This document shows positions 2-56,600 of a stretch of DNA of 57,062 nucleotides, piece by piece (position 1 is the stretch's first letter; every line of letters begins with the position of its first letter). Both the position numbers and the translations under genes were made by a program. This DNA is from Reclinomonas americana ATCC 50394 (Eukaryota). The notes below the pieces were generated by a model. The model did no database searches and had not been told where the DNA came from. It saw only the letters and a program-made list of their open reading frames with translations. The stretch covers positions 131,695 through 188,756 of the forward strand of contig PS015070.1 in the NCBI GenBank assembly GCA_048213135.1, in the 5' to 3' direction.

Positions 2-2972
2 CCTCACACGCTGCGCAGCTACTTTGAGGCTCTCTGCACCGACACGCAGGCGGCCAACATTTTTGTCAACAGCTCCCTCATGACACTCTTTGTCAAGATG
101 CTGAACGCGTTCAAGACGCCAAATATCAAGTCTCGCATCTGCACCATCATGGGCCTGCTTGTGCGCCACGCGACCTACATTTCACCGAAACTGAGGTGTG
201 TGTGTGCGCGTGTTTGCCTAACCTGTGCACCGCCACGTTGGAGGCAATTGCTCACCGTTCACTTCGTCATGTAGTTCGTCGGGCATTGTTGCTGCGCTCA
301 CCAACCTGCTGCGCGACCGCAACACACGATTGAGGCGGCGGGCTGTGAGCTCTCTCGGAGAACTGTTGTTCTACGTGGCGACACAGCAGCTGGACGGAAA
401 TCCAGAGGTATGTATGGTGTTTGTCTCGTGCTCATTCGACATGTGATGGCTGATTCGCTTGTCGTTCTCGCGTCGTGCAGGACGATGCATGGGATGTCAC
501 CAATGCCACCATCAACGGCCTCATCGCCTGCCTCAAGTCCTCGGAGGACGAAACCGTGCAACACTATGCGTGCAAGACAATTGAGAATGTGCGTCGCCTT
601 TTGCCAGCTATACACGCACATGGTAGTTCACATCCCTTTGAATCCCGCTTTGCAGATTGGCTCGCTGAGTCCGCATTTCAGTCGCCGCTTTGCCACGCCC
701 GAGACGTGCACCTACATGCTCTCTCTCTTCTACAACACGCCCAATGAGCACCTGCAACTGGCTGCCATCTCCGCCATTGTGCGCTTGTGCCGGCACAGCC
801 GCCAGTTTGCGGATGCGTTGCTGGAGAAGGACGCTCTCCGCATTCTGCGCACCAGCCTCGAGGATCGCAATACGCGCATTCAGCAGTGCGGCCTAAATGT
901 CATGAATTTGGCGCTCACTCGCGGCATGCCCGGTCGCCTGCAGAGCGATCTCCTCGACGACAAGAACATTATCAAATCGTTTCGTGTCGTCGCGTTCACT
1001 GCAGTGGAATATGCGTTTTCATTCACTTACCCGCCTGCGTCTGTGTGCAGGGTGGTTCGATTGTTGGAGTCGTCGACCGCGGTACTGCAAGCCAAGGCCG
1101 TTCTCTGCGTCGCGCTGCTGTCGTGCATCCACACCCCGACGCTGCACATGCTGTGTGAGCTCAAGTTGTGCCTGCTGGCCGACAAGATTCTCAACGTCAC
1201 CGACGGCTACGTGCAAGACTGTTTGGCAGTTGCGGGGTCTCGTGCTGCTGATTGCTGGATAATAGTGCGTGCTGACGCGGTGTATGCGCCCGACAGGTGC
1301 TGGTCGACTGCATGAAGTGCATCGTGCCGCAGATCTTGGCGCAGGTGCACAGCATCCTGGAACGCGTGGTGGCCGATCCGTACGCAGTCGTGTCGTTCAA
1401 GGTGCGTGGTGTAAGTGCGCGTGCTCTGTGTACGTGTGGGGTGCTGAACTTGCGTGTGGTGGATGCAGACACAAAGCGATCACTTCTCCATACTGCTGCA
1501 CGTGGTCCTGTGCCATGCCATGCGCGGAGCGGTGGTGACGAGTGAAGTCGTCGAAACGCTGGCCTCGTTGCGTTCTCCCTTCCCGCTCCTACACGTCATC
1601 TGTCACCCTCGGGGTTTTCACCCATCCATTTCTGCAGTCTGTTGCCATTCATCGAAAACTTGTCGTTCCCTGCGGCCTCTGAGTTCAAGCAGACGCTGCT
1701 GTTTGTCATTGAGGCCATATCGCAGGTGCGATCTCTGTTTCTCTCCTTGTGTGCATATGGCATTCTCACGTCTTTACTTGAATTCCAGAATGCTGTGTTG
1801 CTGGCCAACGCCAAGAGTGCAATTCTTGGACGCTTGTTGCCGTCACTCTCCGACTTGCTGCAAACAGAAAATGGCGACGTGCGGTTCTACTGCCTAAAGA
1901 TCTTTACCGATTCGCTGGTGTTTTACTTGCGCGACGAGCGACATTATGACGTTGCGTGATTTCGTCACACCTCTTTCTGTCTTCTCTTTCTCTCCGTCTC
2001 ATTTCCTTCTCCTCATCAACAGGCCGCACAACCGGACCACCAGTCCACCAAGGAGATCAATGCACTCATCATCCAGCATCTCTTCTCGCGCTACGCCAAG
2101 ATTTTGGAGGACGAAGACCCGATTCCACTGTTTCGTCCCCGTGCCTTGTTGTTGTCTTGTGTGTGATTCGAGGCTCATTTGGTGTGCGCAGCTACGGCCT
2201 GAAACTGATGAGCCACATTGTGGAGTGCAACCCGGCGTTTGTGGCGATTGTGCGCCAGTTGAAACTCGTGCCGCTGCTGTTCCAGTTCTTCGAGTTGCAA
2301 CATCGCAACAACAACATTCACAATGTGCGACTGGTGCGCATGATTGTCGAGAGCTCCGAAGTGGAACCGGAGGAGGTCTACAATCTCGGTGCGTCCATTG
2401 TCAGCTGTTGCTCTTGTGCATGCTGCTCACTGTACTATGCAGGCCTGGTCGCGAAACTGAATGCCGTGCTTGCATACGCTTACGAGAATCTGGTGGACTC
2501 GTTCTACGAGCCGTGCCTCGACATTGTCAGCACGGCGCTCTTCAAGGCCTCCGAGTCGCTGAAATCGAGTCCACGCAAGGTAGTTGGTCGACAATCATTC
2601 TTTCCCCTGGTGTTGCTGTTGCTGCAGCCCTCCTCACACGACTGCAGGATGACATTTTGGCGCGCAATGCCGGCTTCACCGAGGGACTGGAGGTGTATGT
2701 GTCGCTGCTGGATCACCTCGACGCGGCAGTCACGGAGAAGAGCGCCTCCACCCTGCAACTGTGCGCGCAAATGTACGACGGCGTGTGCGACACTCTGACC
2801 ACTATGCGCCTGCGTGGCGACGGCCCGGCGACGTCGCTGGAGATGCTGACCAAGGTGTTGACGGGCACGGAGCCGACCACATCGCAGACAACACAACGGG
2901 TTGGTTCTTCTTGTTTTTTTGTGTGCTCGTTGGTGGACTGTTCTTGCTCATTCCAGCGTAGCGAGTGCTCAA
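2..2972 (+). CDS. ULK4: ULK4/RUNKEL-like pseudokinase, C-terminal armadillo/HEAT region (5' part lies outside the window; about 13 introns)
   Basis: Spliced exons give AANIFVNSSLM, GLLVRHATYI, RRRAVSSLGELLFYVATQ, EDETVQHYACKTIEN, GDVRFYCLKIFTD and LEDEDPIPLYGLKL, motifs I recall from ULK4/RUNKEL C-termini. All introns are GT-AG, about 60-80 nt. Confidence 0.85.
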
Positions 2973-3027
2973 NNNNNNNNNNNNNNNNNNNNNNNNNNNN
3001 NNNNNNNNNNNNNCCCCCTCGCTGCAG

Positions 3028-3432: not shown

Positions 3433-6854
<3,422 letters not shown>

Positions 6855-7492: not shown

Positions 7493-9089
7493 TCAAGGCT
7501 CAATCTTGGCGTACACGGCGGCAATCCTGCAATATTCAGGCAATGAGCAACGGCAATCACGCGAACGGGAGAAGCACGAACACAAGACGCACTGCTCGGC
7601 GTAGCGGCGAGCCAGAATGGCGCGCTTGATCTTCATTCTGTAACACCAACAACAACGTGAGAACCGAAGCCACGGACCGGAGCAAGCACAGCAAACTACG
7701 CAACGTTGGGGTCAGCGCGTCGTTCTCCACCGTCCACGCTTCGCCGTCGATAATGACGGCGGCCGGGATCTCGAAGCTGTGCAGCTGCTCCACCAAACAG
7801 AGATGATGAGAACGGCGACTCATTTGACCTCAGAAAGATCAACCACCACCCACCTTCTCGCCCTGTGCCACCTCGCGTATTTGAGCCATAATGTCGCCGG
7901 CAAGGCGCTCAGAGTGCTCCGGCAGCGCGACCGTTTGCACCATGTTCTACGAATAAAGAGTGAGAAGACGGGATATGAGTTGTCGATTCTCTCGCCAGTC
8001 AAGTACCTTGCCAGGCACAGGCTCAATGTTGTGGGCCTTTGCCCATGCACCAATGTTGTCCTCGCTCGGCACCACAATGGCCATGATCTTGCTCTTGTGG
8101 CCGTCGCCGTGGATCATGATCTGACCAATCAGAGGGCAGCCACCGCTGAACACACCCTCCAGCTTCTCCGGTCTGCGCGCCACGAAAAAAGAGAGTGAGT
8201 TGGGTGTGCTGAGAAGACGACTGGCTGCAACGTGATTTGCACGCAACGCAATGTACTCGCCCAGCGAGTTCTTCATGATGGACTTGGCGCGATCCACAAT
8301 GGCAAACGTGCCGTTGGGGAACACGCGTGCAATGTCGCCGGTGCGGAACCAGCTGTGGATTGGAGAAATGTTAGGGGAAGTCTGTCACACAAGGTGCGTT
8401 TATGAATGACACACACCCGTCGGCGAGGAACACCTCGGCGGTCTTCTCCGGCTCCTTGTAGTAGCCCTTGGACACGTTCGGGCCGCGGATGCACAACTCG
8501 CCGTACTGAGGATATGGGGGAAGCAGAGGTCAATGAGAGAGTCAATTCGCCACGCACCAACGACGGAGACAATGACACACAGTAGAGCAACACTACGAAG
8601 AGGAACAAAGATGGCCGGCATGCTCAAGCACGGGAAACGAGAAAGCAAAGTGAACATACCTCGGGCAGGCGGTACGGTCCAAAGTCCGACGCGTCAAGGA
8701 ACTTGATTTCTGTGGTCAACCATCATGTCAGTTTTCAAGTCACAGAGAATGCGATATGAGACGAGGCAGATCACCGCACCGCAGCACGGGATGGGACCAC
8801 CGAGAATGCCGGACGACAGATCGGTAGCGAGCTGGACTGTGGCACCGGCGCACTGCGAGGAGATCGATGAGTAACAACATGAGAATCCTTGACTGCCACG
8901 CAATAATCTCACCGTCTCTGTCAGACCGTAGCTGTATCGGAGCACACAAGGACATGTGAGTCAACTGAAAGAAGGACAGAGGAGTTCACAAAGAGACACA
9001 CACAGACGCACAAGCACCGCAAGAAAGCACGCACAATTAGACACGCATCAGCACGCACACCTTTACACACACACACGAGAGGCAACAAA

Positions 9090-9120
<31 letters not shown>

Positions 9121-11330
9121 TTCACGGGTGCAAGGATGAAGCCCTCACGCGTGCACCCCAACACGCAACAAAGTGCACAACACACACTCACACGTGAAGC
9201 AACAATACACAAACATAGACACGCAGCAAAACTCACGAAAATACACACAGACGAGAGGCAACGATGTGAGCACAATTTAAGTTGCACAACACCCCGTGAT
9301 ACAGGGCGACATATTATCCTTCTTTCGCACGCGCAGATACACACAACGCACAAGCAGCACAACAACCCAGAGACCCAGGCTGTTGTATCATCCCACTACA
9401 CAGGTAGCACCGTATCCTCGACACACATCATCCTTCCCTCCCTCCCTCCTCTCTCTCTCTCTCCCTCCCTCCCCCCTCACCCTTGCACGACCGGGCAGCA
9501 GAACACACTGCGACACAACACGGACAGTGAGCGACACCAACAACCAAACAAAACATCTTTCGACAGCTGCACCACCACCACGCAACACACGCAGGAAGTC
9601 CTGAATGTCGGGTCGCAGCGGTCCGCCACCGCTGATAATGGTGTGCACCTCGCCGCCGAGACGGCTCTTTGTCTTGGAAAAGACGAGCTTGTCGTAGATG
9701 GGAGTGGAATCGACGACTCCTGTGCACGGACATACTCAAATTCAGAGTCACTATATAAAAAAAAAACAATAGTCACCGATCACACATGCATCGACTCACC
9801 CTCCTTCAACAGTCGGAGCTTCTTGTCGAAACCCATGGTGAAGAGCTTGCGGCGGAGGAAGCTGGAGCCGTGCACCACGCTCCAGATCTTCTCGTGCAGG
9901 CGCTCAAAGATGCGCGGCACACCGATAAAGATGGTCGGCTTCAGCTCCTCAATGTCACTGATCAGGTTGCGCACGTCGCCGGAGAAGTAGCCGACGGCAC
10001 CGCCCATGGCCAGGATGCCGGCCTCGGCCACACGCTCAAAGATGTGCGCCAGCGGCAGGAACGACAGCAGGCGCTCACCGGGTGTGAAAGTGCGCAGGTT
10101 CATCTGGATGCCCGACACGGTGGCCATCATGTTGAGGTGGGTGATTTCCACGCCCTTGGGAGTGCCAGTGGTGCCACTGCACGATAATGATAATGATGAG
10201 TGGGGGAGAAGGGAGAGAGAGAGACTTGTGGAAGAGGTAAAGGGACGAGCACCCAGAGAAACGAGAGCGCCAACAGAAAAGGGGAACCGATCACATGAAC
10301 GAGTGCGAACAAGAAGAGCGACCAAGCGAAGACGAGGGTATGCAAGGGCACGGGTGCAGGGCGATTAAGCAGAAGAGTGAAGGAGAGACAATAAGAGATG
10401 GCAGTTGAAGTAGAGGGTTGGAGAAGAAGGAGAGAGAAAGAGGGAAAGAGCGCAGAGAAGTGCGAACTCGCTCTGACAAACACACACACTCTCAAGACAG
10501 ACAAGGCATCTCACCTCGTGTACATGATAATGGCGGTGTCGGCGGGCTCCGGCGGCTCCTCAGCGCACGGCTCCTCGGTGCCCAGTTGCAGGACCTGGGC
10601 GGGGAGAAAAAGTTAGCAGGGGACGCAGTAATGGATGGAGATTTCAACTTCTATCTCACACAAACCTCATCGTACGAGTGCACATGCTTGCCGTGCTCCT
10701 CGCACTTGGCGCGCACTTCGGGAGTGATGGCGGCCGCGTCGAACACAATGACGGTGCGGAGGGCAGCGCATTGCGGCAGAATCTCCAGCAGCTTGGGCAG
10801 GCACTGGCCCGAGACGACCACAAACGACGACTCGGAGTGGTTCACAATGTACTCGACGGCGTTCGGGCCGAGGGTGTCGTACAGGGCGACGGTGATGGCG
10901 CCGTGGCGGTAGCAAGCGTGCTCGCACACCTGCCACTCGAGGCGGTTCTTGGAGTAGAAGCCCACCTGAAAGAGGCAAGGGGAGGGTGAACAGGGGAAGG
11001 GGAAGACGGAAAGGGAGGGTTAGGGAGAGGGAGAGGGAAAGAAGGGGAGAAAATGGAAAGGGAGGGTGAGGGACGGGCTGAGATAAATACGAGAAAGAAA
11101 CGAAATACTGATCTATTCAAAGAGAGGGCGAAGAGAAGCGCTGCAGGTGATGAATGTGAAGAGAAGGACATGAACTGAAAGATGGAATTCGACTGGCGAT
11201 ATGATCAAAGACCAACCAAGACACATGATGGAGAGAGAGAGAGAGACAGAGAGAGAGAGAGAGGAGGACACACACAGAGAGAGGACACAGAGAGAGAGAG
11301 AGACAGAAGAGAGAGAGAGGACAGAGAGAG

Positions 11331-14213: not shown

Positions 14214-17200
14214 ATGGAGGGCTCTGTCACTGTTCTCGCCGACAATGGTCCTCTCATGCGATATGCGACACCAGAGGAGGCGACGATTGTGGAGTGGTGG
14301 GGTGAGTGACTCACTTGAGAGAGAGAAAGGGAGGTGTGTGTGTGTGTGAGAGAGAGAGAGTACTGAGTGAGGGAGCGCTGTGTGCAGTCAGTGTGAGAGT
14401 GAGGAGTATGTGTGTGCGTAGGGAATGAGAGAGAGAAAGTAAAGAAGAAGAGAGAGAGGAATAGAGAGTGAATGAGTCAGTCAATCACTTTCTTTCTCTC
14501 TCTGCCTCCCTCCCTCTCCCTCTCTACCTCGTGCACTTGTTCTCTCATTGACTCAGTCCCTCATTGCAGAGTTGCAATCAAACACTCTTACACTGTCTTG
14601 TACACAGACACACTCCCTCACTCATTCTCCTTCTCTCACTCTCCAGTCATTCACTCTCTATCAGAGACACACTCCCTTACTCATTCTCCGTCTCCCCCTC
14701 TCCCTCTCCAGTCATTCATTCACTCAGTCCCTCGTTGCACGAGAGTTGCACTCAGTCACACTCTGTCTTGCACACTCTCTTCCTCTCTCTCTCTCTCTCT
14801 CACACACACAAACTCCCTCACTCATTCTCCTTCTCGCCCTCTCCCTCTCCAGTCATTCACTCACTCAGTCCCTCGTTGCACGACAGTTGCACTCATTCAC
14901 ACTCTGTCTTACACGCACCCTTCCTCTCTCTCACAGACACACTCCCTCACTCATTCTCCTTCACCCTCTCCCCTAGTGCTCCGCGGATTCAAGGTGTTCT
15001 GCTACCCTGCACGAACGGTGAGCATGCACCCTTCTCTCTCTCTGTTCTCCCTCCCTTCACTCACACTCACTCCCTTGCTGATACCAAGGCCCCCGTGTAC
15101 ACCGGTGTCATCTCTCTCCTCGAGTGCACCTCTGTGTGCCGCTCCTTCCCGCCCGACTTTATCATTTCGCGACCGGAGGAGAAGGGCGGGACGGTGGTGG
15201 TGCGTGCGGCCTCGGACGATGAGCGAGAGATGTGGGTGGCCACACTGGAGAGTCTGCTGGCGGCGTCGCTGGAGCTGCGTGAGCGGAAGCAGCGAGAGGA
15301 GGAGTTGGAGCGCAAGGTGGCCAGGCATCAGGCGAAGATTGCGGAGGAGTTGCACAAGCAGCAGGTAGGGAAGGGAATGGAGGAAAGGGAGGGGAGAGAG
15401 ATGTGCTCTCTCGCCACTCCTTGCCGCTCATGTTGCTCCTCTCCTCGTCCTCGCATCGCATGATCCTTCATCTTGCCGTGACAAGCGGGGAACACTCTTA
15501 TGTTCCCTTCTTAGCCATTGCGCTTCATCCTCGCATCGCATCATTCTTTCACGCATTCGTTGCTCTGTTCTCGTGCTTCGCTCTTGGCCATCACACAGAG
15601 TTTTTCCGTGCACTGTGTGGTGGGAATTCTACTCATCTGTCACCACATGATCCATTCAACAGCTTGTTACTACTCTGTCGAGTGGCAAACTCGCTTCCGT
15701 CCTCTAATGCTCTTCTCGTGCGTTCTGTCATCCACTCTCCTTCCAGCGTCAATGTGGCTTGCTGCTTGGTGTTCATTGCCTTCGCCTCCGTGCGCCACCC
15801 TGGTCTTTTCTTCTGCGAGTTGTGCTGTCGAGCAAGAAGTGTGCCTCTGTGCTGTTGTCGTCAGTTGTTCTTGTCTTCTTGCTCCACATTTGCTCCCTTC
15901 TACGAGTTTTTCTGTGCCACCCTTACTCCTTTCTCCCTCTCCTTCCCCCTCTCCTCATCCCCCTCCTTCTCCCCTTTCTCCTCATCCCCTCCTTCTCCCT
16001 CGCCTCCCCCTTTCCCCCGCAGACCGCCCTTGCCGAAAAGCGCCTCTCCGCCGCCTTTGACGTGGCCATTCGCGGCGAGTACATCTGGAAGGCCTGCGAC
16101 CGGAAACCAAAGGAGGTCCGACGATACCTCCGTCTCTCGTCTGACAGAACTAAGCTGCAAGTTGCGCTCTCTGCTCTCCTCTTCCCTCCCCCATTGCCAC
16201 TCACCAGTCGAGGCGCGATACAGTGGGGACCATCGCCGAGCAGCATGACATCGCAACTGCTGCTGTCCGAGTGCAAGGCGCTCTTTCGCGGTGTGCAGAC
16301 TGAGAACATGCGCAACGTGTGCACGCACATTGACGACGACGGCACAAATTGCTTCTCGGTGCTGACGCCCAAGCGAACACTGGACATTGCTTGCGAGTGC
16401 GTGGGAGATGGAAGGGGCATTCCTCCTTGTTTCGCACGTGCTTCTNNNNNNNNNNNNNNNNNNNNNNNNNNNNNNNNNNNNNNNNNNNNNNNNNNNNNNN
16501 NNNNNNNNNNNNNNNNNNNNNNNNNNNNNNNNNNNNNNNNNNNNNNNNNNNNNNNNNNNNNNNNNNNNNNNNNNNNNNNNNNNNNNNNNNNNNNNNNNNN
16601 NNNNNNNNNNNNNNNNNNNNNNNNNNNNNNNNNNNNNNNNNNNNNNNNNNNNNNNNNNNNNNNNNNNNNNNNNNNNNNNNNNNNNNNNNNNNCACCATCT
16701 CCGCGATTAGGTCGGAGGACTCGCGCGAGCAGTGGATCACGGCCATGCGCGCCGCTGTGTTGGGCGAGTCGCAGTTCTTTGCGAATCAAATGTTCCGCGT
16801 GTTGATGACGGGGCTGGATGGGGCCGGCAAGACGGCGCTGATCCGCTCGTGGTTGCACCAGGACCTGACGAACTTGGAACCCACGCATCGTTGCGTCGCT
16901 GATTATCTGTCACTCGTGTGCCCTTCGTTTTTGATGACATTGGTGCTGTGCAGGCGGTCACATGGTGACCTACGAGGCCGACGCCAACATGATTCTTGCC
17001 TTTTGGGACTGCCCCGGTGGCGAGGAGCAGCGCTGGAAGTGGATGGCTCACGACGAGAACTCTCTGAGCTGCATTGTGTTTGTCGTCGGTACGTGGGCGC
17101 ATGCGTGCAGAGGCGTCGACTCTTGGTGCACTCCCTCTCGCTCTCCCCCTGTCGCTCTCCCCCTGTCGCTCTCCCCCTCTCGCTCTCCCCTCACTCGCTC

Positions 17201-18502
17201 TCCCCTCTCGCTCTCCCCTCACTCGCTCTCCCCTCACTCGCTCTCCCCTCACTCGCTCTCCCCTCACTCGCTCTCCCCTCACTCGCTCTCCCCTCTCGCT
17301 CTCCCCCTCTCGCTCTCNNNNNNNNNNNNNNNNNNNNNNNNNNNNNNNNNNNNNNNNNNNNNNNNNNNNNNNTCGTCCGCTCTCCCCCTCGTCGCTTTCC
17401 CCCTCGTCGCTTTCCCCCTGTCACTCTCCCCCTGTCGCTCTCCCCCTGTCGCCCCCCTGTTGCATTCCCCCTGTCGCTCTCTTGCTCACCCCTCTCTCTC
17501 CCCATCACGTCAGATGCGCTCGACCAGTCGCGATTCGAGGAGGCGAGCAATGCGCTGCATGAGTTGCGTGCGTGCCTCTGCCCATTTCCCCTCTTTGTTC
17601 AATGGTTCTGACACTCTGGGGACGACAGCATGTGCACGGTCCTGTCGAACAACATTCCGCTGTTGATCCTCGCCAACAAGATAGACCAGGAAGGCGCGCC
17701 ATCGGCGGCCATTCTGTCTTCCGCTCTGCGTCTGGATCGTCTGCGCAAGCGACGTGAACACACACTGATAATGACCTCTGCGTTTTTGGCAGGTTGGTGA
17801 TTGCTCTCCCTCGTTCCCGTCTCCCTTTTCCTCCTCTCCCTTTTCCCCCTCTCCCTCTTTCCATTCTACCCACAAAACAGTTGAGAACAAAAACCTCACC
17901 CTTATCCGCGTTGCGCAGAAAACACGTATGTGGCACTCGATTGGATGATTCAGCGCATCAAGATTCAACGACGCACTGTCATGCAAGCCGTCAAGGAGAG
18001 TGCCGTTCGCGGTCTTCACCAACTGCAGGCCGGTTTCGACATTTCGAAGCCTGCGCCGGCGGTGAACGGAACGGCGACGGCCACCTCTGCCGCTGCTGCA
18101 GCCAGTGGCGCCGCCGACGGTGCTGCAAAGACCAGGAAGCGTGGAGCCACGCTCGCGCAGCGCATGATTGCTGTCGACCAGACCAAGACCGCAAACAGTT
18201 GCGATGCAGTTTGGGCGGGGAGAGGTAGTCCGGCTCTTGATGTTCACTCCTTTATTATGTCAGCCTCAACACGAGTGCCTGCGTCGGGTGGCACGCCGAA
18301 TCCACTGGCCGCATCCGCCAATGCCCCCGCGCGGGTTCCTGCGCCCGCCACGTCAGCGCTGCCACCACCGCCCTCCGCACCTGCATCGTCACGCTGGCCG
18401 ACCCACCAAGCCTCCGCCGCCGCCGCCGCTTCGCCTGTACAGGCACCGGCATCACCGACTCCGGCACCACCGAGCTCGGCAGTACGTTCGCCTGTGCGAT
18501 GA
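14214..18502 (+). CDS. PH + coiled coil + second PH + Arf/Arl-like small GTPase + Ala/Pro-rich tail
   Basis: PH1: WWVLRGFKVFCY...GVISL...VVRAASDDEREMWVATLE. PH2 (PLC-like): RRYLRLSSDRTKLQW...CFSVLTPKRTLDIACESEDSREQWITAM. GTPase: FRVLMTGLDGAGKT (G1 at 16811-16834), EPT, FWDCPGG, IVFVVD, IPLLILANKID, TSA. All joined in frame by GT-AG introns, two of which contain gaps. Confidence 0.8.
17135..17480. repeat. Intronic minisatellite, about 15-bp unit ACTCGCTCTCCCCTC
   Basis: Direct tandem copies at 17190-17317, with degenerate copies before them and after the gap. Confidence 0.9.
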
Positions 18503-21284: not shown

Positions 21285-23975
21285 TCAAGGATCCGGATTA
21301 CGTGGCTCTTCTTGCTTGACATCGACCTTGTTTTGCAGAATCTCTGCCGCGGTGCCGTGTGGACTTAGCGGCGCAGTGTTGGTGGCTCCGCTCACATGCA
21401 CGGAGTATGTTACTGCTGCGCGCGCGGCAGGAGCAACATGCCTCAGAGACAATCGCGACGACGGATCAAAATGCAGACCTGCGGCGGCAGCATCAGCGGC
21501 CGCAGTTACCGCAACGACTGTGATCTCGAGCTCCAACGACTGCAATGGATTGTACTGAGCGGCGGCAGAGGCAGCAGAATCCGCAGCGGAGGCAGCAGGC
21601 TGATTCTGTGCAAAGGAGAGTGTCACAGGAAAGATGCAGCTTTCAGCACAGCAGCACAAAGCACCTCTTCGCTTGATACGCCCGAGCCAGTCGAGCGCTG
21701 CCGTTTCATCGGCGGACTGCCATCGCCATCATGATCACGTTGGGCCATCGATATCGGCCGCTTATCGCCAGCATGCGGTTCAGAGTCCGGGGAGCCATGC
21801 AAGTGGAGGCCATCACTCATTTTCGCAGACGCAGCATCGACTAGTTGAGCAGCCGCCGACTCTGCCATCAGCGGGTGCACGTGGCTGGCGTTGTGCCGAT
21901 CGCGATGCGCAGTGCCAGCTCCCGACGGCAACCGATCGTCACCTGGAGGAGTCGTCGCGGATCCGGATGTGGAGACAGAGTGCGGTCTCTTGGGTTCCCT
22001 CTCATCGATTTCCGCAGACGACGCCGCGGCTGAACGTTTTCCAGTTGTCTGCGGCACGAGAGATAAGTAGACGACGGCACAACGCAAAGAAAGTGAACTT
22101 GTACCGAGCGTCGCGGCTGATGAGATTCCGAAGCTTCCGCTCCAACATCTTGCGCAGGCAGTGAGACACTGGAGACACGCACGCGATATGCAGTGCGCAG
22201 CTGTTTACTCACCGGTTGACGGTGACGGAGTGCGATGCAGCGAGGAAGCGACAACCGGCTGTGCTGTTGCTGCTGCAGCTGCAGTTGGTGCCGACCTCTG
22301 CAGCTGCTGTGGTAAACAGGGGTAGAACATATCAGCGACGAGTTAACAGCATCAATGGTGATAAGATATCTGTGCGCACGAACCGTACGACGGGATGGAC
22401 TGACACGGTTGTCTGCTACCAACTCGAAACAATAAGCACACTTCTTGGCATGACTCATAACGCAAAGCAAGACGCACCCGGTTCACCTCTTCGTGGAGTC
22501 GAGTTGCTTGCTTGTTCGGTGTTGCTTGCAGTTCTCTTTGTGCGTGGGGAGGCGAGTGGCGGCACCGCAGCGACGGCGTCCGATGAAGCTGGCGATGCAG
22601 GATCTGAGGTTGATCTGTTGTACCCAATGACGCGGAGGCATGATCACGAGATCGCGCAACGCGTGAAAGAGAAGAGAGAGCGAAACTCATTGCGATACCT
22701 AGAGCGCGGTAGTTGCGTGTCTATAGGGTTGGCCGGCGGCTCGCGATAGGAAGGAGCGTTCGAGGACAGTGAGCCGCGGTTGGCAGCCGAGGACGACAGC
22801 CTCATCGTCGCGATCGGCTGTCCACTGCTCGTTGTCTTCTTGACAGCGAGAAGCGTGGACGGCGGAGCAGCAGCAGTTAACGTTGTAGAAATCCTGTCCA
22901 CCGCAAGCGCAGGCACGGTTGATGGCGAAGCAGAGGCGATCGTTGAGGAAATCGGCCTCGCCGGCACAGACGGCGCTGGCAGTCGTAGCGGCATCAGAGC
23001 GCCATACTGCAGCGACGGTGGCACTGGCCGCTCCACAGCAGGATGCATACGCATCGGCGATCGCGCTGGCTGTGGTGGTGGCGATGGCTGTCGTCTTGGG
23101 GGCGCTGGCGGCGGACGTCGTCCTGGATCCGGAGGCGGAGGTGGTGGTGGTGGTGGCGGTGGTGGTGGTGGTGGTGTCGGCGGCGGTGGCTACAGGGAGC
23201 GGTACCAAGCGACCTCAGCACGGGCGATCACTCAAGCAGACTGATATCGGTATTCTCACCGAAGACGACGAAGGCGGCCCTGGTAGAGACTGCGGACTGT
23301 TTGCACCACCTCGCCTGAGCAGCCAGACCACCAGCACCACATTCAACACAGCGAACAGGATTGCAGCAAGCATGATCGAGTACGACGCTATGTAGGCGAC
23401 AAGCAGGTTTCCGAAGGCCGAGGCACCAGCAGACAACATCAGTATCAACGCAGGGCGTTGCACAAGCCTTTGCACGTATCCAGCTAACAATCGCAAACGA
23501 AGCCGTTGCAGCACCGGCAACAAGCACAAGAGGCGAACCCACATCACGATCATCACAGGCTGCGCCAGCGCGCCTGCAACTACCGCCCATCCCTCGTTGA
23601 CGATTTCATCCAGTCCTTGCACTATCACAGTCAACAGTACCCAAACGATGTATATGCACAGCACAGAGCACGAGATCAGCTTGTCTAAAGCGTCCAGCCG
23701 CCACCACCACGCAAGTACGGGCCGAGTAACAACAAGCACCAGATATCTCAGTGCGATAAACAAGCAATGTACCACCACCGCGAAGGCGCAAAGCAGGTAA
23801 TAAGGGAGCAATGCGACATGTTTCTGCAACATCCAACCCACGAAAAAAGACGCGGAGAGAGAGAGAGTCAGGAAAAATGCATGATCTATGATCGGTTATT
23901 GTGACATGTGCACGCAAGCAAGCTCACCGCCAGTGTGATGCAGCCTCTTAACGTCCTCCACAAGATCGTCTCCAT
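21285..23975 (-). CDS. Tandem family copy A: about 4 N-terminal TM segments + long Pro/Ser/Ala-rich disordered tail (about 8 introns)
   Basis: Splices in frame from METILWRTLRGCITLA|KHVALLPYYLL through WRLDALDKLI, a poly-Pro tract and KRPHS/PPMKRQRS to KQEEPRNPDP*. Intron positions are shared with copies B and C. Confidence 0.7.
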
Positions 23976-24486: not shown

Positions 24487-24526
<40 letters not shown>

Positions 24527-37979: not shown

Positions 37980-40238
37980 ATGGGCAACGCCGGTTGCGTC
38001 TCTCTCTCGCCCCTGCTCCTCCTCCTACCAGTCTTCATCTCACACTAACACGCAGCCTCCACCGCCTCATCCTCCTCACCATCCTCCTCACCTCCTCTCC
38101 CTCCACCTCTCCCGCCTCCTCCACCTCCACCTCCACCTCTCACCGAACCCGCCGACGAGATCCTCCTCGCCACCGTCGACCCCGCCGCGCTCCTCCCCGC
38201 GCCCTCTCACAGCGAGCCTCCTCCTCGCATCGACGCAGCAGACGCCCTCCACGCGCTCTTCCCCTCGGCCTCAGACTCGCGCGAGCAGTACCGCCTGCGC
38301 GAGGTCATGGTCGCCGCGCACCTCAGCGCAGCCGCCTACCACGTCGACTGCGCGGTCGGCGTGCGCGGAGGCCCGCTGAGTGTGTCGGCGTTCTCGGCCC
38401 GGCGAGTACTGGAGTCGCGCGGGCTGTTGCGCAGTGTGAGGGCCGTGCAGCGGGTGTCGCTGTCGCGCTATCAGCAGGGATCGTCGTCGTTTGAGGGCGA
38501 GGACAGTGAGGATGAGGGTGAGTTGATGTCGTCGCCGTCGAGTGCGGATGCGTGGCCGTTTGGGCCGCCGTTGTTGCAGCGCGTGCAGGTTACCATTGCT
38601 GAGGCGCCGCAGGTGGGTGAAGGGGGAGGAGGGAAAAGAGTATTTTTACACAGTTGTCGCGTTTGTCGGGCTCACGTTCTTCTCCTTCTTGTTCGTGTCC
38701 TTCTCCTTCTCTTCGGTGTTCTTCTTGCCTTCTTCCTCCCGTCTCCTTCCCTTCGTTATTTCTTTCTTCTTGGTATTCTGCTTCTCCTTCTCTTCCTTCT
38801 ACTTCTTGTTCGTGTCCTTCTCCTTCTCTTCGGTGTTCTTCTTGCCTTCTTCATCCATCTCCTTCTCTTCGTTGCTCTTCTTGCCGTCTTCTTCCTTGCC
38901 ATCTTCTCCATCTTGCTCCTTCTCTTCGTTGTTCTTCTTACTTGCTTCTCCACCTTGTTCTTGCCCATCCGCGCTCGTGTTTTTCGCCTTCTTGTTCCTC
39001 CCCTTCTCCTTCTCTTTCTCCTCCTTGTTCCTCTCCTGCTGCGTGTTCCTCGCCTTCTCCTTTCTTGTGATTCATCTTGCCTCATTCACCTTCTCCCCCT
39101 CCTTCTCGTTCCTCCCCTCGTTTCTCTCCTGCTTCTTTCATCCTTCTTCTTGTTCCTTCCGTCTCCTGCCTTCTCCTCGTTATTCTTCCTGCCTTGCTTC
39201 TTCTTGTTGTTCTTCTCACTCTCTTCTTGTTCCTCCTCTTTGTGATTCATCTTGCCTTCGTCGTCTTCTCTTCCTTCTCCCGCTCCTCTTCCTCCTCCGT
39301 CATCTTCTTCTTTATTTCTTCGTTGCTCCTCTTCTCCTTCTCTTCGTGGTTCTTCTTGCCTTCCTCTTCTCTCCTTGTTTTGCTCTGTTCCACCTCCTCG
39401 TCCATCTTCTTGTTCTTCATTCTCATCCTCCCCTCCCCTTCCCCTTTGTCCCCTTCCCCCTTATCCCCTCCCCTTCCCCTTAACCCCTCTCAGTTCTGCA
39501 TGCTGGCGGAGGACCCGGAGACGCTGTACGTGTGCTTCAAGGGCACCTCGCTCTCCGACGCCGCCGACATTGTGGCCAACGCGCGTCGCGTGGCCATCCC
39601 CTTCCCCGGCCTGCGCAACGTGCTGGTGCACGAGGGCTACTATGCGCGCGCCAAGACCATGCAGATTCGCGAGATTGTCGACCGGGCGCGCCGCACACGC
39701 CGCCGTCTCGTCTTTTGCGGCCACTCGCTGGGCGGAGCAGTGGCGGCGCTGGTGGCGCTTCGTGTCATCACCGAGGCACGGGTGGGCTCGCCGAATCACA
39801 TTGCGTGCTACACGTTTGGTGCGCCGCTCTTTGTGGCCGCGGACTCGGTGCCGGCGATGCTGGAGCGGCGGCTCGACAATATCTTTTTCAACTTTGCCAT
39901 GGAGGGCGATTGGATTCCGTTCTGCCACATGCGGCTCAACGAGGCGCTTGGTGGGGTGGTGAGTGGGTGGGAGGTGAAGGGGGAAGGGAAGGGGGAAGGA
40001 AGGGGAAGGAGAGAAAGAGAGAATATATGTCAGAGGAGAGTGAGATGGAAAGAGAGGGAGTCAAAGAGAAGAGTGTACCAAACCGAGTGGCGAAATAGTG
40101 AGCAATAGCATCTGTACAAGACAGACAATCGAGTGCTCGGAGTCTCGTTCTTTCGTTCTTTAGTTCTCTCTCTGTCTCTCTCTCTCTCTCTTCGTTCTCT
40201 TTCTTTTCTCCCTCGCCCTCTCCTTTTTCTTATGCTTG

Positions 40239-47417: not shown

Positions 47418-47465
<48 letters not shown>

Positions 47466-49175
47466 CACTCTCTGACCTTCTTGCGTGTGTACAGAATTGG
47501 ACTCTTCATGGTCGACGTGCATGTGTTGGCGACATACGGCGATGTTTCGGCCATGGACACGTACTTGATGTGGCTCGGCAGTGTACAATACGACCACGTG
47601 CTAGCGGCGCAGCTATTAGGGCCGTCGGTGTCGCCGTTGGAGTTGGAATCGACGTTGCAAGTTGAGTTTTCTCATTTAGAGTCCGACTTGTCGGCTTTCT
47701 CGCTCGTTCTAGACTCGCCCTCCCTCACTCACGCACACACAGACGCACACACACTCACCCTCCCACGCTCTCTCACTCACTCGCTGACGCTCTTGGCTGA
47801 GCTTCGCGTTGTAGTCGCTGGCTCTCTTCTTTTCCTCCCTTGTCTCTTATTCTGAGGGTTGCTCACCTTGACTTATCCTGGCTCACCTTCAATCTCACGC
47901 ACTCGCTCATGCTCACTCTTGTTGATGGGCGTTCGCTTTGCAGTCGCTCATTCTCTTGTCCATCGTCGTTTGTCTTCTCTTCTCATTGGTGTGAATGCTT
48001 GCGCATCGTCTCACTCATTCTCATGCACTCTCTTTTCGCCCTCTTCTACCTCTTGCATGTGATTCTGGTCCCTTTTCACCAAGACTCGCCTCAGTCGCAC
48101 ACGCGCTCTCTCTTGCTCACTCTCCAGCTTGTCTACACTCGCCTTCCACTCACTCCTCTCGCTTCACACTCAGCCACACTCATTAACACAACTTTTCTCA
48201 CCCTGTCCTCCATCTCCCCTTCCCTTCTCCCGTCTCCCTTCTCCTTCTCCTTCCACTTCTGCCTCGCAGGCATTAAAAGCCCGGGCAAGTCGCACCTCTG
48301 GCAGCGAAGACGAACGCTGCAACGCCATGATGAAGCTGGCCAGGTTGCACGACGAGTTGCTGCAGGATTGGCCCGTCGCGCAGCACTTGTACAATACAGC
48401 GGCGGCGGAGTCGAAGCGATGGCGTGTCGATGCGTGGTATCATTTGGGTCGCCATTTTCGACGCGCTGGTACGTGATCACCGCCGCGATTGTTTTCTTAG
48501 CCTTCTCCCCCCTCACACTCCTCCTCCTCCTCGTCCTCGCAGGCGACATCAAACAAGGCCTCCGATACCTCTCCCAGGCCGTGGCACTGGAGGCGTCGGA
48601 GACCAACGCTGCGCCGTCGCCGCTTCCGCTCACCTCGGCCAGCCCTCTAGACCCCTCCTCCGAGTTCACCATCGGCATTGGCACGCGGGGTGCCTCGTCG
48701 CACGCCGCGCCCAACAGCACTCCGCTCTACCCGCTGCTGGATCGCTGTATCCTGCACCTCGAGTACCTCACCAACGCCGTACTCGCGCTGGAGCCGTCGT
48801 CTCCTGAGTGGGTCAATGCGGTCAAGCGCAGCTTGGCGCAGGTGTGTGTGGGCGGGGGAGGGTGAAGAGAAGGAGTGTGACAGAGAGAGAGAGAGAGAGA
48901 GAGAGAAAGAAAGAGAGTGAGGCAGGGAGAAGCAGATTCATAGTCACGCCCAGAGAGGAGAAAGAAACAGATTCAAAGACACTCTCTATCATTCTGCTCT
49001 CTCAGTGTGTCTATGAATCTGCCTCTCTGCCTCTCTCTTTCTCTCTGCCTCTCTCTTTCTCTCTCTCTCCCTNNNNNNNNNNNNNNNNNNNNNNNNNNNN
49101 NNNNNNNNNNNNNNNNNNNNNNNNNNNNNNNNNNNNNNNNNNNNNNNNNNNNNNNNNNNNNNNNNNNNNNNNNNN

Positions 49176-50474: not shown

Positions 50475-53400
50475 TGTCATGGGGAGGCGACAATCTGCGC
50501 AACATGCCCGACAAGGAGCACTTGCCGGAGGTGCTGCCGATTGTGCAAAAGTCCACCGTTTTCAAGGTTTGTGCTGGCTGTGTCGTTGCTCAGAACGCAA
50601 TTGGCTGACTGAGTGATGATATTAGTACCGGTACGCGTGGAACACGTGCACCTTTGGCTACAGCTCCGTCTTCTGGTCGTGGAATCGGTGGGAGCGTGAA
50701 ATTGACTGGATGGCTCTGCACGGTTCCGCCCAACTGTGTTGCCGTGCTTTTGTTGTTACGCACTGATGCTCACCACCGTGTCGTCGCAGGCATCAATTTC
50801 CCGCTGGCCCTGATCGGTCAGGAGTACGTGTGGCTGCAGGTTCGTTGACGCGCTGCTCCTTCATGTCGACTGGCTGGTGTGTTTCTCACGCGCTGTGACA
50901 CTAGGTGTGGGAGTCCCTCGGTCTCAACTCCACGGATGTTGTCTCCGAGTTTTACAGTGGCCCTGCATTCCTTCCATGGTACGTGAAGTGGTTGAATCGG
51001 GGTGCATGAGCGCTGCATGCACTCATTCGCCTCGCAGGCATCGCATGGGCAATCTGAATGGCTGGATGTCGCCGCTCACCGACAACTGGCTCACCGGTCA
51101 GCGTGATCTGCAGCTGAAGATCCTGCAGCGCTTCCGTGCGTTCGGCATGAAGCCGATCCTCGGCGGCTTTGCTGGTCACGTGCCGAAGAGTCTGTCGCTG
51201 AAGTACCCGCAAGCGAACATCACGCAGGTAACAGCAGGCTTCTGGAGTAATTGACGCATTCTATCTTTCCGCGCTTTTCTTCTGCTTCCATTCTTCTTTG
51301 CATTTCGTTTATCTCTTTCGTGCCTCTCCCGTCTCCCTTCTCTCTCTTCTCGTTCTCTCTTCTCATCCTCTTCCCCTCTCACGCAGCTGGCGGAATGGGC
51401 CGACTTTGAGGGCACCTACTTCCTCAGCCCCACCGATCCGCTCTTCCAGACCATCGGGCGCACATTCATCGCCAAGCAGACTGAGATCTTTGGCACCGAT
51501 CACTATTACTCGGCCGATCCCTTCAATGAGGTGCGTAGAGGATGAAAGAGAGATGAGCTTGTGCATGCCTTTCTCATCGCCTCCTCAACAGCTGGAGCCA
51601 AGCAGCAACGACCCGACGTACTTGCGCAACGTGGGCAGCTCGATCTACAATGCCATGGCGTCGTCGGATCCACAGGCCGTGTGGGTGATGCAGGCGTGGT
51701 ACGTGGGGGGAGGCACTTGACCGATCATCCCACCCGACTGCCGCTCACTTGCACCGTGACGCACAGGTTCCTGGAAAATGAGGCCGACTGGTGGCAGCCA
51801 CCGCAAGCAGAGGCGATTTTGACGAGCGTGGTGCGTCGCTCCTCCCTTCTCTTTCTCCCTCTCGCCGCCCTCAGATTCTTCTTCTTCTCATGCGCTCCTC
51901 CCGCAGCCTGGCGACAAGCTGCTCATGCTCGATCTGTGGTCCGAGGTGGCTCCAGTGTACACGACCACGAAGAATTTCTACGGCAAGCCGTTTATTTGGA
52001 ACATGCTGCACAAGTTGCGCCACCGCACTCACATCACTCCCTCTCCTCACCACTGATCTCAACGCACTCGACAGCTTTGGCGGCCGCTCCGGACTGTATG
52101 GACGCATGAACCAAGTCAATGTTGGTCCCGCCGCCGCCATTGGAACACAAGAGAGTAATGTCGTTGGTATTGGCATGACACCGGAGGCGATTGAGACGAA
52201 TCCAGTGCGTCGTATCCGATCTCTTCCGTGTCCACTTGTTGTTGCTCATCAACTTCGGCAGGTCATGTACTCACTGCTCACCGATCACATCTGGCACTGG
52301 CGACCGTTCGATTTGGAGGACTGGGTCACCAAGTACCCGCTGCGTCGGTACGGCATCAACGACCTCAACCTGCAACTGGCCTGGCGCCTGCTGGCATCGT
52401 CGGCCTACGATTGTCCCACTGGGCAGCAGGGCACGACGGACTCCATCGGTGCGCTGCTGGTCATTTTCCACTGCTGCTGCGAGGCTTCTCTCGTCCCTCA
52501 CTCGATGTTCACAGTCGCCTTCCGACCCTCCATCTCCATCACCGGCGCGACTCTTTACTACGACACATCGCTGGTCAGCGACGCCGCGCAGTTGTTGGTC
52601 GCTGCTCGTTCGCAGCTGGCCGGTCTGCCGACGTACGAGTTTGATGTTGTTGCGTCGCCGAGTCCGCCAGCCTCCGCTCGTCGCCTCGTACTTATGTCTC
52701 TTTCTCTGCGCAGGTTTCCGTCGGCGTTCAAGTGCTAAAGTTAGTTGACCAGCTCGATCATGGCTCTCTGCTTTTCGCTGAACTGATTCGTCTCTCCCCA
52801 CGTATCGCAGCAACCAGGCAGTCGTCGAATACCAGAACATGGTCAAGGCCGTCAACGCTGGCGACGGTAATCAGTTCTCGGTGGCCGCCGCCGAATTCCT
52901 CTCTCTTGTCGACGACATTGAATCGGTGCTGGCGAGCAACAGCTTCTTCTCACTCGACAACTGGTTTTGTCATCTTGCTCTCTCTCTTCTCTTTCGTGCT
53001 CGTGCGTCAGTCCTCATTCCTTTTCGTCGCCACTTGTAGGTTGCTGAGTGCACGTCAGTGGGCAACAAACGCTGCTGAGCGTGTGCAGTACGAGCTGAAC
53101 GCCCGCACGCAGTTGACGTTGTGGGGACCGTCGGACTCACCGCTGCACGACTATGCCTACAAGCTGTGGTCCGGTCTCGTCAGCGTTGCGTCACATGTTT
53201 GCGCGTCGTGGCAGTAGCTGTTGTTGTTTTTGTTTGCTGACTGCCCGATGACAGACCTTTTATCGCCCGCGATGGGCGCTGTTCATCAGTCGTATGCAGC
53301 AAGCTCTGGATTCACGCCAGCCGTTCGACGACAAGGCATTCACGCGCGACGTCGAGGCCCTCGAGTTGGCATGGACGAAGCGCTTGAGTGCCAACGAGAT

Positions 53401-53656: not shown

Positions 53657-56600
53657 TCACAGGAATTCCGTCCTGCGCAGGCTCATGAACTGCACCAGCA
53701 GCCACACAATGATTGCAAACAAGGGGATTACGGTGGCCCACTGGCCAAATACGTTCTGCCGCCGAACGAGCGCGCGCATCTGTCGGTTTTCTGCCTCGTA
53801 GGCCTCCACCAGTGACAAGAGCGAGGCAGCGGCCTCCTCACGACGTGCCAGTGCTGTCTCGATCTTGCTCAGCAGTGCCGGTGGCACCGTGGACAACTGC
53901 TCCACCTCCTTTCCAACAACATTGTCCTCCACCTGTGCGCAAAAAAACAAGTGAGATTACAACAAAGCTGTGTGGGAGACATGGATGGAGAGACCTCGGT
54001 GGTGAGCGGCACAATGGCGGTGGCCATCGACGGCCCAGCCGTGGGTGTGGTGACAAAGGTGAGCTTTGTCGGTCGCGGCACCGAGGCCACCACCACCGGG
54101 GCGGCACGCTTCGCCTGCGAGGTGTTGGGCTTGAGTGCCGACGCCAAGGGCGGAGTAAACGTGTCGTCGTGGCACATGGAGGAGATCATGTCACGCGGCG
54201 AATTGAACACGGTCGACTTGTTGATGCCAGACACTGAGGTTCCGACCACCACCACATCCTCATCGTCTTCGTCGTCATCGGCCTCCTTGGCAAAGTACAC
54301 GCAGTCGTCCTCCACCGAGGCGGCCACTCGAGCCACCACGTCAGTGTGCGGCACCGGTACCACGATTTCCTTCTCCACCTCACCATCCTCGTCCACAGCG
54401 ACGTCATCCAAGTTGTGCAAGGCCGTTGTGTCGCTCAGGCTGCTGTTCGTGCACTGCGAAATCGCCGTGACATTCGGCAGCCCGTACGCAAACGCGCGGG
54501 CGGCACTGCCGGTGCGCGCCGAGGCCACCAGTGTGGAGTCGGGAGACGGCGACAGGGCGGCCAGCGACATGCCGGATTTACCGGGGGTGACCGACACCAC
54601 GGTGAATGACGACGACGAGGCGGATGGCGATATGACCGAGTCGTGCGTGGTGGTTTCTGTGGCGCTTGCGGGTGAGCAGAGGGTTGACGGCAAGAGGAGA
54701 GACATCAAGACACACATACCGTCAGCAGCAATGGTAACCAGCGTCGAGTTGCCTTCGTCCTCGGGCGCTGTGCGAGGAAAGGAATTCGGTCGATGGAGCA
54801 CAGACACGCTCTCCCGCTCAGCACACTCACCGTCGTCGCGCGGCGCAGTCAGCTCCTGCCACCCGCGAGTGAGATTGGGAGACGGGGCAGGGGCGAGTGG
54901 CGGCGGCACTCCATCCATGGACGATCCCACTGGCACCCCACCGCCTGCGGCAAACGACGAAGGTGGTGGCGGTGCGGGCGAGCTAATGTGCAACGATCCG
55001 TTGGGTGACTGCCACATGCGGTCGAGCACGCCCTCCAGGCGGCGAATGGTGGCACCCGGTGTCTCGCAGGCGGCGAGGCTGGTGCTAAGAGGCTGCGGAG
55101 GTGTGAGACGCGACCGGGGCGATAATGATGATGAAGAGCAGAGTGTGCATCTCACCCCTGCAATGGCGGTGGCGGCGGCGGGTGTCGGCGGCGCGGCGGC
55201 AGCCGGAGACGGGCTACTGGCCACATGCGCCTTTTTCGGCATGGCGACTTCGGGAGTTGCCTTGAGCGGTGTGTTGCGCGCGACCTTTTGCTTCTGGCGA
55301 CGCGATGCCGACGATGCGGGTGTCTTGTTGAGGCTGTTGTCGGTCATGGGGGACAGCGGGGTGCGAGTGACGGCCGAGAGGTTGGCGCTGCGCGTCTCGC
55401 GGAGGGGGGAGGGGGTTTCGATGCCCTGATTGAGGGGAAGGATTTGAGGGGAAGGAGGGAAGGAGGGGGGAAGGAGGGAAGGAGGGGGAAAGAGGGGAAA
55501 AGAGGGGAAAAGAGGGGGAGGAGGGGAAGGAGGGGAGAGGGAGAGGGGAAGAAGGGAGGGGGAAGGGGGAAGGAGAACGGGAAACACGGGTTCGGTGAGA
55601 GGAGAGGAACGGTCCATGAGCGATGAAACATCGCGAAGACAAGAGAGGGCGAACAGAGTCGATTGCCATGAGATGGCGACACAGGTTACTGCACCATGGT
55701 TAAGGGTCTCAAGTGCGTGAGAGAAGAGACGTCGGCGAACCGAGACCGCAACAGGGAGAAAGCAGAACGAGAACACAGAAGAACCATGATAAACGACAAG
55801 TGTGCTTGGGAGAGAACGAAGCCATCAACAATACGGATCGCTGGAGGAGAGAACTGAACAAGAAAGGCGATGAGCACGACAGATCGCGTTGCGAAAGAAG
55901 GAAGGGTATTTGTGAGAGAACCGAGTCGATAACTGGGAGAACGCAGATCGCAAAGGATCGCAAAGGAAAGAGGCGTAACGTACGGGAGTAGAGCTGCACA
56001 GAGAGAACAACCCGTAAAGAAGAGATGACTTGAGTGGCGAGAAGAAGAAGAACAGAGAAGCGATCGGTTTGTGAGACTGCGACTCAGCTCAACGCAGAAG
56101 GAAAGAGTACTGAAGAAGGCGAATGTCACTGCGAAAGATGGAACCTCACAAGGCACAAGAGTGAAAGTAGCGTTGAAGATCAGTGCACTGTCAACGCCCT
56201 CCTCGGCAATGACGAGGGGCTGGTACACAAGAGACAGCACAAACGTGGCTGCAGATTGCGTCACACACACCTGGCGATTGCTCATTCGAACGTGCACAAG
56301 AACAGGAACAACAATTCAACAACAAAACGTGCTGTCTCCCACTCCCACTCTTCCCTTTCGCTCGCGCACGTGCACTTGTCCTCTCCCCTCTTCTCCGCAC
56401 GCAACTCTCATGGCCTCCTCCTCCTCCTCCGCCACCTTCCTCCGCTCCAAATCCCGTTGCAACGGCGTCTTACCCCCCTGCAGTCCCGTAATCACACGCT
56501 CCGCCTCGCGCCCACCCACCGGAGGCTCCAGCGCACGAATCGCAGTCGCAGCAGGCTGACGCGGAGTGCGCATCACCATGGCCGCCCCGACGACCACTGG

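Follow-up and report, generated by a model that had tools for sequence, protein, structure and literature searches.

Homology support for a second class of 5′ splice sites, displaced by one base, in an intron-dense window of Reclinomonas americana

Introduction

A few dozen human 5′ splice sites (donors) are read in a shifted register. Both this register and the one in which a base at +2/+3 is bulged have been experimentally established in humans, where the validated non-canonical registers together make up 1.5% of sites and 68 out of 201,541 are predicted to use the +2/+3 bulge (Tan et al. 2016, with Table 3 for the last figure, PMC4856993). Donors are also known to trade off the last exon base (position -1) against the intron-side positions (Parker, Fica and Simpson 2025, PMC11732430). 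The present analysis concerns the donors in a stretch of 57,062 nucleotides (nt) from Reclinomonas americana ATCC 50394 (contig PS015070.1, positions 131,695 to 188,756 of the forward strand), called the window below, with coordinates counted from its first letter. A model that had read the letters alone (the original prediction) had listed 19 donors that look like the usual motif with one extra T, so that the G expected at +5 falls at +6. Homologous proteins, reading frames and motif counts support the view that donors with G at +6 form a genuine class of their own, that they are abundant, and that the exons before them hardly ever end in G.

A discrete class of donors

The donor classes were compared over 41 homology-supported introns, comprising 14 with the core variant motif, 2 with a related motif and 25 with a canonical donor. 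Canonical donors carry G at +5 in 24 of 25 cases, and the core variants have C at +5 and G at +6 without exception (14/14), with T at +7 in 12 of the 14. Over the whole set, 17 of the 41 donors are without G at +5, and 16 of these carry T at +3 together with G at +6 (14 of the form GTT[GT]CG, plus GTTTTGT at 52964 and GTTCCGC at 50723), the lone donor outside the pattern being GTAACAG. Since 16 of 17 share the same two bases, this is not general degeneracy, and the distinct class that the original prediction had proposed stands among the supported donors.

The same prediction had held that canonical donors usually follow G and that variant donors do not, and had suggested testing whether -1G and the +6G class are anticorrelated. 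Exons end in G before 21 of 25 canonical donors and before none of the 14 core variants (Fisher p = 2e-7), so that the supported donors without -1G consist of 14 variant and 4 canonical ones; with a background of 28.5% G, its absence from all 14 core variants has P = 0.009.

Apart from the donor, the variant introns are much like their neighbours. Their length (median 69 nt, range 61-79 nt) compares with a median of 68 nt for canonical introns, all 14 begin with GT and end in AG, specifically CAG, with boundaries taken from donor-blind alignment or from structure continuity, and, as read from the sequences, 12 have a CTSAY or TTCAY motif ahead of the acceptor. The introns at 16890 and 52649 have weaker branch-like sites, only GATGAC and CTTAT-like. 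Phase 2 is found in 9 of 14 variant introns vs 9 of 27 others, a trend only (p = 0.10), and retention would break the frame or meet a stop in 12 of the 14. As placed by homology, then, the cuts fall at the listed GU, in a class that is discrete and whose putative 3′ halves are like those of other introns.

At +3, most eukaryotes have a purine. When the variant class is counted together with donors of normal spacing and +3T, GTT opens 19 of the 41 supported introns in the window; the latter donors (GTTTGT, GTTCGT, GTTAGT) are common, at 10665(-), 5231(-), 50567(+), 50840(+), 52740(+), 29693(-) and 22383(-).

Supported introns and the genes that carry them

Genes were identified by running Pfam on the stop-to-stop frames of the window. 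The supported variant sites fall in the following five:

1-2970, forward strand: ULK4-like HEAT gene (Pfam)
about 3.4-5.2 kilobases (kb), reverse strand: katanin-like AAA ATPase gene (Pfam)
about 7.5-12.5 kb, reverse strand: long-chain acyl-CoA synthetase gene (Pfam)
16.7-18 kb, forward strand: Arf-like GTPase gene (Pfam)
50.1-53.5 kb, forward strand: alpha-N-acetylglucosaminidase (NAGLU) gene (Pfam)

Spliced protein-to-DNA alignment permitted any GT..AG intron at a flat penalty and with no donor model, and therefore the donor sequence could not bias the choice of the aligner. The acyl-CoA synthetase gene was aligned with 12 homologs, the ULK4-like gene with 11 (3 of which are cluster mates of others) and NAGLU with 3; the nearest relative found for any gene of the window has 62% identity (P0001). 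A homolog search with the segment 2192-2579 gave no match.

All 19 hexamers of the original prediction are present at their coordinates and strands, and the preceding base is other than G in 18 of them, as it had said, the sole G being at 37993. Its reading of these motifs as starts of GT-AG introns is borne out for 14 of the 19 by donor-blind alignment, by continuity in solved structures or by domain length. These 14 introns are given below, with the slash marking the exon-intron boundary:

979..1050, forward strand: atc/GTTTCGT...CAG, phase 2, ULK4-like; donor and acceptor placed by 8 of 11 homologs
1229..1296, forward strand: gca/GTTGCGG...CAG, phase 0, ULK4-like; donor placed by 6 of 11 homologs
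1567..1637, forward strand: ctc/GTTGCGT...CAG, phase 2, ULK4-like; 7 of 11 homologs
1951..2022, forward strand: gac/GTTGCGT...CAG, phase 0, ULK4-like; 3 of 11 homologs
2130..2191, forward strand: act/GTTTCGT...CAG, phase 2, ULK4-like; 8 of 11 homologs
4601..4677, reverse strand: aca/GTTTCGT...CAG, phase 2, katanin-like AAA ATPase; structure continuity
7638..7704, reverse strand: aac/GTTGCGT...CAG, phase 2, acyl-CoA synthetase; 10 of 12 homologs
8173..8247, reverse strand: tgc/GTTGCGT...CAG, phase 2, acyl-CoA synthetase; 12 of 12 homologs
9508..9586, reverse strand: tgt/GTTGCGT...CAG, phase 2, acyl-CoA synthetase; 9 of 12 homologs
16890..16953, forward strand: atc/GTTGCGT...CAG, phase 1, Arf-like GTPase; domain length, jointly with 17563
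17563..17628, forward strand: tga/GTTGCGTGCGT...CAG, phase 2, Arf-like GTPase; domain length, jointly with 16890
52014..52074, forward strand: caa/GTTGCGC...CAG, phase 2, NAGLU; 3 of 3 homologs
52649..52713, forward strand: gtt/GTTGCGT...CAG, phase 0, NAGLU; 2 of 3 homologs, gap-free
53185..53254, forward strand: agc/GTTGCGT...CAG, phase 0, NAGLU; 3 of 3 homologs

Many of these junctions are fixed by conserved residues on either side. In the ULK4-like gene the alignment runs gap-free through EDEDPIP/LYGLKL at 2130, and at 1229 the rival donor 1211 would cut 18 nt that hold a conserved Y-V-x-x-C-L motif, with the acceptor at 1296 taken by 4 homologs and that at 1317 by 2. At 1567, 3 homologs picked 1595 with another acceptor. 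At 1951, 4 homologs took 1979 instead, but solely by way of a frameshift; the intron has an in-frame TGA 9 nt inside, and its donor is fixed by a conserved exon end (...Y-D/N). The exons flanking 4677 in the katanin-like gene match consecutive residues, gap-free, in the katanin chains 5zqm_A, 5zql_B and 6b5c_A. In the acyl-CoA synthetase gene the joined residues are contiguous at 7704 (LTP/TMKIKR) and at 8247 (GEYI/APEKLE), and those flanking 9586 are identical in P0001. The same holds in NAGLU for 52014 (NMLH/NFGG contiguous) and for 53185 (SGLVS/TFYRPRW contiguous); site 52649 has an in-frame alternative 3 nt upstream (52646).

For the Arf-like gene the evidence is of another kind. A model with donors at 16890, 17089 and 17563 puts 62 residues between two anchors, a spacing that is 61 both in Arl2/Arl3 chains and in the Arf profile of Pfam, and this agreement supports 16890 and 17563 jointly, though neither singly, as putative donors. 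The match to the Arf profile stops one residue ahead of donor 16890, near which there is no in-frame alternative GT. At 17563, a canonical GTGCGT lies 5 nt inside the motif GTTGCGTGCGT (17563-17573), and the frame obtained from it would run into a stop with the sole available acceptor. A PDB search with the second Arf-like exon returned spurious lectin-like matches only. The 11-mer GTTGCGTGCGT also starts at 18838(+) and at 56405(-).

Two further NAGLU donors with G at +6, both after G, had not been listed in the original prediction:

52964..53039, forward strand: related donor ctg/GTTTTGT, with T at +7; NAGLU, 3 of 3 homologs
50723..50789, forward strand: possibly related donor acg/GTTCCGC; NAGLU, 3 of 3 homologs

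Two gene structures deserve separate mention. A micro-exon of 26 nt (52714-52739, forward strand) lies in NAGLU between a variant-donor intron and a GTTAGT intron, and is placed by 2 of 3 homologs. The acyl-CoA synthetase intron 8932-9480 (reverse strand) is 549 nt long, compared with a norm of 54-80 nt, and has a purine-rich start and an unused GTTGCGT at 9169.

The other five listed sites (16161, 22686, 37993, 47661 and 56405) remain candidates:

16161..16223, forward strand: candidate intron caa/GTTGCGC...CAG; motif, CTCAC branch-like site and CAG
22680..22686, reverse strand: candidate donor motif tga/GTTTCGC; motif
37993..38055, forward strand: candidate intron ccg/GTTGCGT...CAG, 13 nt after a GCCACCATGG start context; read by eye
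47661..47667, forward strand: candidate donor motif caa/GTTGAGT; motif, read by eye with no clear acceptor
56399..56405, reverse strand: candidate donor motif aga/GTTGCGTGCGG; motif, read by eye with no clear acceptor

The 63-nt segment at 16161 is open in frame, and a parse of the window trained on the supported sites (see below) chose the in-frame alternative donor 16116; a test for a PH domain at this site gave no Pfam match at E <= 10. At 22686 the GTTTCGC is conserved in 3 tandem paralogs, and the 82-nt indel that comes after it is what one would expect if the DNA there is non-coding; the acceptor differs among the paralog copies. The candidate intron at 37993 contains an in-frame TAA, and the frame reopens past its CAG. 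Downstream of 56405 the DNA is purine-rich, unlike other introns.

Motif occurrence and frequency of the class

Counted on both strands, GTTGCGT occurs 17 times in the window compared with 8.4 +/- 2.8 in dinucleotide-preserving shuffles, of which 1 in 100 reached 17. Nine of the 17 occurrences are homology-supported donors, and the excess over the shuffles (about twofold) equals the number of supported donors. The wider motif GTTKCGT is found 23 times vs 15.2 +/- 4.2, a count reached in 7 of 100 shuffles. Upstream of anchors made of a branch-like site and YAG, GTTGCG occurs 20 times where 10.7 are expected; the 369 anchors of this test spanned about 40% of the window, and even GTGCGT came out without enrichment.

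The original prediction had estimated by eye that one intron in six is of the variant class, and a trained window-wide parse agrees with it, 19 of 121 predicted introns being of this kind. Allowing the class in the parse raised the score from 1593 to 1776 and the introns from 106 to 121. A donor-agnostic parse found 9 of the 19 listed sites without help, but its output contained much noise, including many antisense calls, and it shifted other sites to in-frame neighbouring GTs. Of the 38 introns in the three genes aligned in full, 11 are core variants, a share biased upward because the original prediction had flagged those very genes. On these figures the class would account for roughly 15-30% of the introns in the window.

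The trained parse also contains GTT[GT]CG candidate donors beyond the 19 listed, at 3087-3093(-), 18198(+) and 28718(+). A family of introners was considered as the source of the variant introns and rejected, as they share nothing beyond the donor; this comes from reading the intron sequences, with no alignment run.

Pairing with U1 and a possible mechanism

The variant introns are probably, with a probability of about 0.6, ordinary short U2-type GT-AG introns that the major spliceosome reads with a one-base offset. One extra U would stand between the invariant GU and the downstream G-U of +5/+6, giving GUU(G/U)CGU rather than GU(G/U)CGU. The same spliceosome would find the intron-side signal at a distance from the cut that is greater by one base, as in the human shifted or +2/+3 bulge registers, and the G that opens the intron may stand in for the exon's -1G, in which case variant donors would be defined from the intron side. 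The organism may, in other words, routinely read the signal for the start of an intron in two spacings.

The registers described in humans differ in how well they fit. For a shifted register, the core variants show the expected bases, having C rather than G at +5, G at +6 in all 14 and U (T in the DNA) at +7 in 12. Better pairing with U1 small nuclear RNA (snRNA) in the shifted than in the canonical register, which such a site should also have, is not seen with the standard U1 5′ end, and the host's own U1 may differ. For a +2/+3 bulge, removing one U turns GU(U)GCGU into GUGCGU, the commonest canonical donor here, and GU(U)UCGU into GUUCGU, also canonical here; the contribution that -1G opposite C9 of U1 should make is absent from the core variants. 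Because a bulge should still profit from -1G and none is preferred, the shifted register is favoured over the bulge, on a small sample.

Duplex energies were predicted for the standard 5′ terminus of U1 in the form given by Tan et al. (2016, PMC4856993). The means are -6.6 kcal/mol for canonical donors, -1.36 for variant donors and -2.73 for random GT sites; a hypothetical U1 matched to GUGCGU gives -9.9, -5.9 and -5.3 kcal/mol, respectively. Since standard U1 pairs weakly with the variants in any register, the decisive contacts are probably made later (the U6 ACAGAGA box, U5 loop 1 or proteins), or else the U1 5′ end is non-standard. U1 pairing alone would not explain the class on these models, and the sites would be defined by later contacts (U6, U5, proteins) unless the snRNAs themselves are non-standard. 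Four canonical donors without -1G (589 aat/, 7592(-) gca/ and 52205 cca/, each followed by GTGCGT, and 52740 aaa/GTTAGT) have a predicted pairing with standard U1 as weak as that of the variants, -1.1 to -1.7 kcal/mol.

Several points weigh against a one-base offset read by the major spliceosome, or against the extent claimed for it. The variant donors pair worse than random GT sites with standard U1, and no register is stable; a shifted register predicts A at the last exon base, and the counts are C 7, A 4 and T 3. When the two related donors with -1G are included, the depletion of G is not significant (2/16, P = 0.12). The use of the junctions is deduced from protein homology and reading frame. 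As to frequency, figures of 29-34% stem from flagged genes, with few or no variants in the other genes of the window, and the trained parse is partly circular because the variant model was trained on these same sites.

A more far-reaching proposal is that two modes run in parallel, namely an exon-anchored AG/GUNNGU and an intron-only offset GUU-N-CGU, the latter read through variant U1/U6 or a changed protein contact and preferred where the coding sequence offers no G at the exon end. This would be a rather unlikely arrangement.

Alternative explanations

A dedicated variant snRNA, either a second U1 complementary to GUUGCGU or a variant U6, would mean two small nuclear ribonucleoproteins and not one working in two registers. 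The sharp definition of the class, conserved through +7, and its very weak pairing with the standard U1 5′ end speak for such an snRNA, and for Entamoeba and Mastigamoeba a preprint (Roy and Bowser 2022) reports U1 5′ ends that evolved together with atypical donors. Yet the same preprint gives only the standard U1 5′ end for Mamiellales and Thecamonas, whose donors are of the GYGCGY type, and a U1 matched to GUGCGU serves the variants no better than random GT sites (-5.9 vs -5.3 kcal/mol). An Rfam search of the window at the gathering threshold gave 0 matches, so that there is no snRNA gene within it, and a dedicated snRNA is on balance an unlikely explanation. A minor-spliceosome origin is hardly credible at all. 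U12-type introns start with RTATCCTT and carry a TCCTTAAC-like branch site near their 3′ end, neither of which is seen in the listed donors and 3′ sequences, and the sole point in favour of such introns is the departure from the major donor consensus. CTSAY...CAG signals mark the 3′ halves just as they do in canonical introns, the lengths agree too, and a share of 15-30% is far above any known for minor introns, which in humans is 0.36% (Tan et al. 2016, PMC4856993).

It could also be that the junctions are wrong, with other nearby GTs in use or the segments retained and the motif a by-product of composition. The junctions do come from homology and frame, 5 of the 19 listed sites are still candidates, in-frame alternative GTs lie near several sites (994, 1211, 4662, 17572, 52646), and retention would keep the frame at 979 and 8247, where the intron length is divisible by 3 and no stop occurs. 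Even so this is very unlikely, as donor-blind alignments of homologs converge on the listed GTs and pass gap-free through conserved motifs, the residue numbering of the katanin chains is continuous across 4677, all but two of the 14 introns would break the frame or meet a stop if retained, and GTTGCGT exceeds its shuffled expectation by just the count of supported donors. The downstream GT at +6/+7 was considered as the real donor and rejected because the 5 nt it adds break frames fixed by homology. Finally, a degenerate GTNNGT consensus with G at +6 by chance would make the class illusory; donors are indeed variable at +3 and +4, and +3T also occurs with normal spacing (GTTTGT, GTTCGT, GTTAGT). 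Against this stand the near-constant +5G of canonical donors (24/25), the +3T/+6G shared by 16 of the 17 others, the +7T of 12 of the 14 core donors and the contrast at -1G (0/14 vs 21/25), which together make mere degeneracy extremely improbable.

Other features of the window

The window is intron-dense, with about 55% G+C and 16 runs of N over its 57 kb, and includes genes beyond those that carry supported variant introns:

within the window: WD40, PolD3, RPL39 and lipase genes (Pfam)

A tandem array of paralogous gene copies occupies 21310-30121, with a unit of about 3.9 kb and blocks that are 71-93% identical (for example, 93% between 25017-26252 and 28864-30121, and 85% between 23072-24507 and 27482-28884); Pfam on the stop-to-stop frames of this array found no match. 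The intergenic DNA contains long microsatellites of CT/GA and CA/TG (5425-6860, 47380-47470, 56850-57062 and elsewhere), and these yield long spurious open frames. Such frames are misleading for the training of codon usage, and the parse was therefore seeded from Pfam stretches. A metagenome scan returned relatives only 38-44% identical (L001-L003), a distance at which orthologous introns are not comparable.

Comparison with known systems

No report of an abundant class in a non-canonical register, or of GTTGCGT/GUUGCGU as a donor, was found in full-text searches of the literature, a comparison that did not extend to the supplementary logos of Verhelst et al. for Micromonas. Human 5′ splice sites in non-canonical registers are a small fringe, and here one offset register would, if the reading is true, account for roughly one intron in six to one in three. 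Such a genome would then offer a natural system for asking (i) how the place of the cut is determined once the parts of the signal that face U1 and U6 are offset by one base, and (ii) whether snRNAs or proteins have changed to permit the offset. There would be a practical side as well, in that gene finders with a single donor matrix would misplace exon ends; in the parse, omitting the class lost 15 introns and 183 score units.

The closest likeness is with human sites in the shifted (+1) register (Roca and Krainer 2009, as described in Tan et al. 2016, PMC4856993), which are cut at GU, lack +5G and have G/U at +6/+7, and in which the intron's first G can replace -1G opposite C9 of U1, leaving the last exon base unconstrained. 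Unlike these rare sites, whose share in humans is well under 1%, the variant class here is frequent, with 19 of the 121 introns in the parse and 11 of the 38 in the three aligned genes, and its core, UGCGU or UUCGU, would pair poorly with standard U1 in that register. Human +2/+3 bulge sites (Tan et al. 2016, PMC4856993) are similar in their GU-U-... start, where one or the other U can bulge out to leave a remainder that fits the local consensus, but in that register -1G should help, whereas the variants here are without it in 14 of 14.

With respect to overall donor usage, the canonical donor of the window, (A)G/GTGCGT, together with its CTGAC/CTCAC branch-like site resembles the consensus of Mamiellales (Irimia and Roy 2008; Verhelst et al. 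2013), and C at +4 has also been reported for Thecamonas and Mastigamoeba (Irimia and Roy 2008; Verhelst et al. 2013; Roy and Bowser 2022 preprint). Unlike what is described for these lineages with GYGCGY-type donors, the window has the additional GTTGCGT or +6G class, which the excerpted portions of those three papers do not mention, and its introns lie much closer together than those of the Mamiellales genes that Verhelst et al. (2013) describe.

A more general parallel is the 'seesaw linkage' that Parker, Fica and Simpson (2025, PMC11732430) describe for two classes of donors, AG//GUNNN and NN//GURAG, where a strong intron side goes with a free exon end; the variant class would behave as its NN//intron-defined class. 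It differs in that the intron-side signal is displaced by one base, and in that canonical donors here carry -1G (84%) together with +5G (96%) and do not split into two classes. Finally, like U12-type introns, the variant introns constitute a second sharply defined donor class beside the major one; unlike them, they have a different donor and branch, with 3′ halves of the major type.

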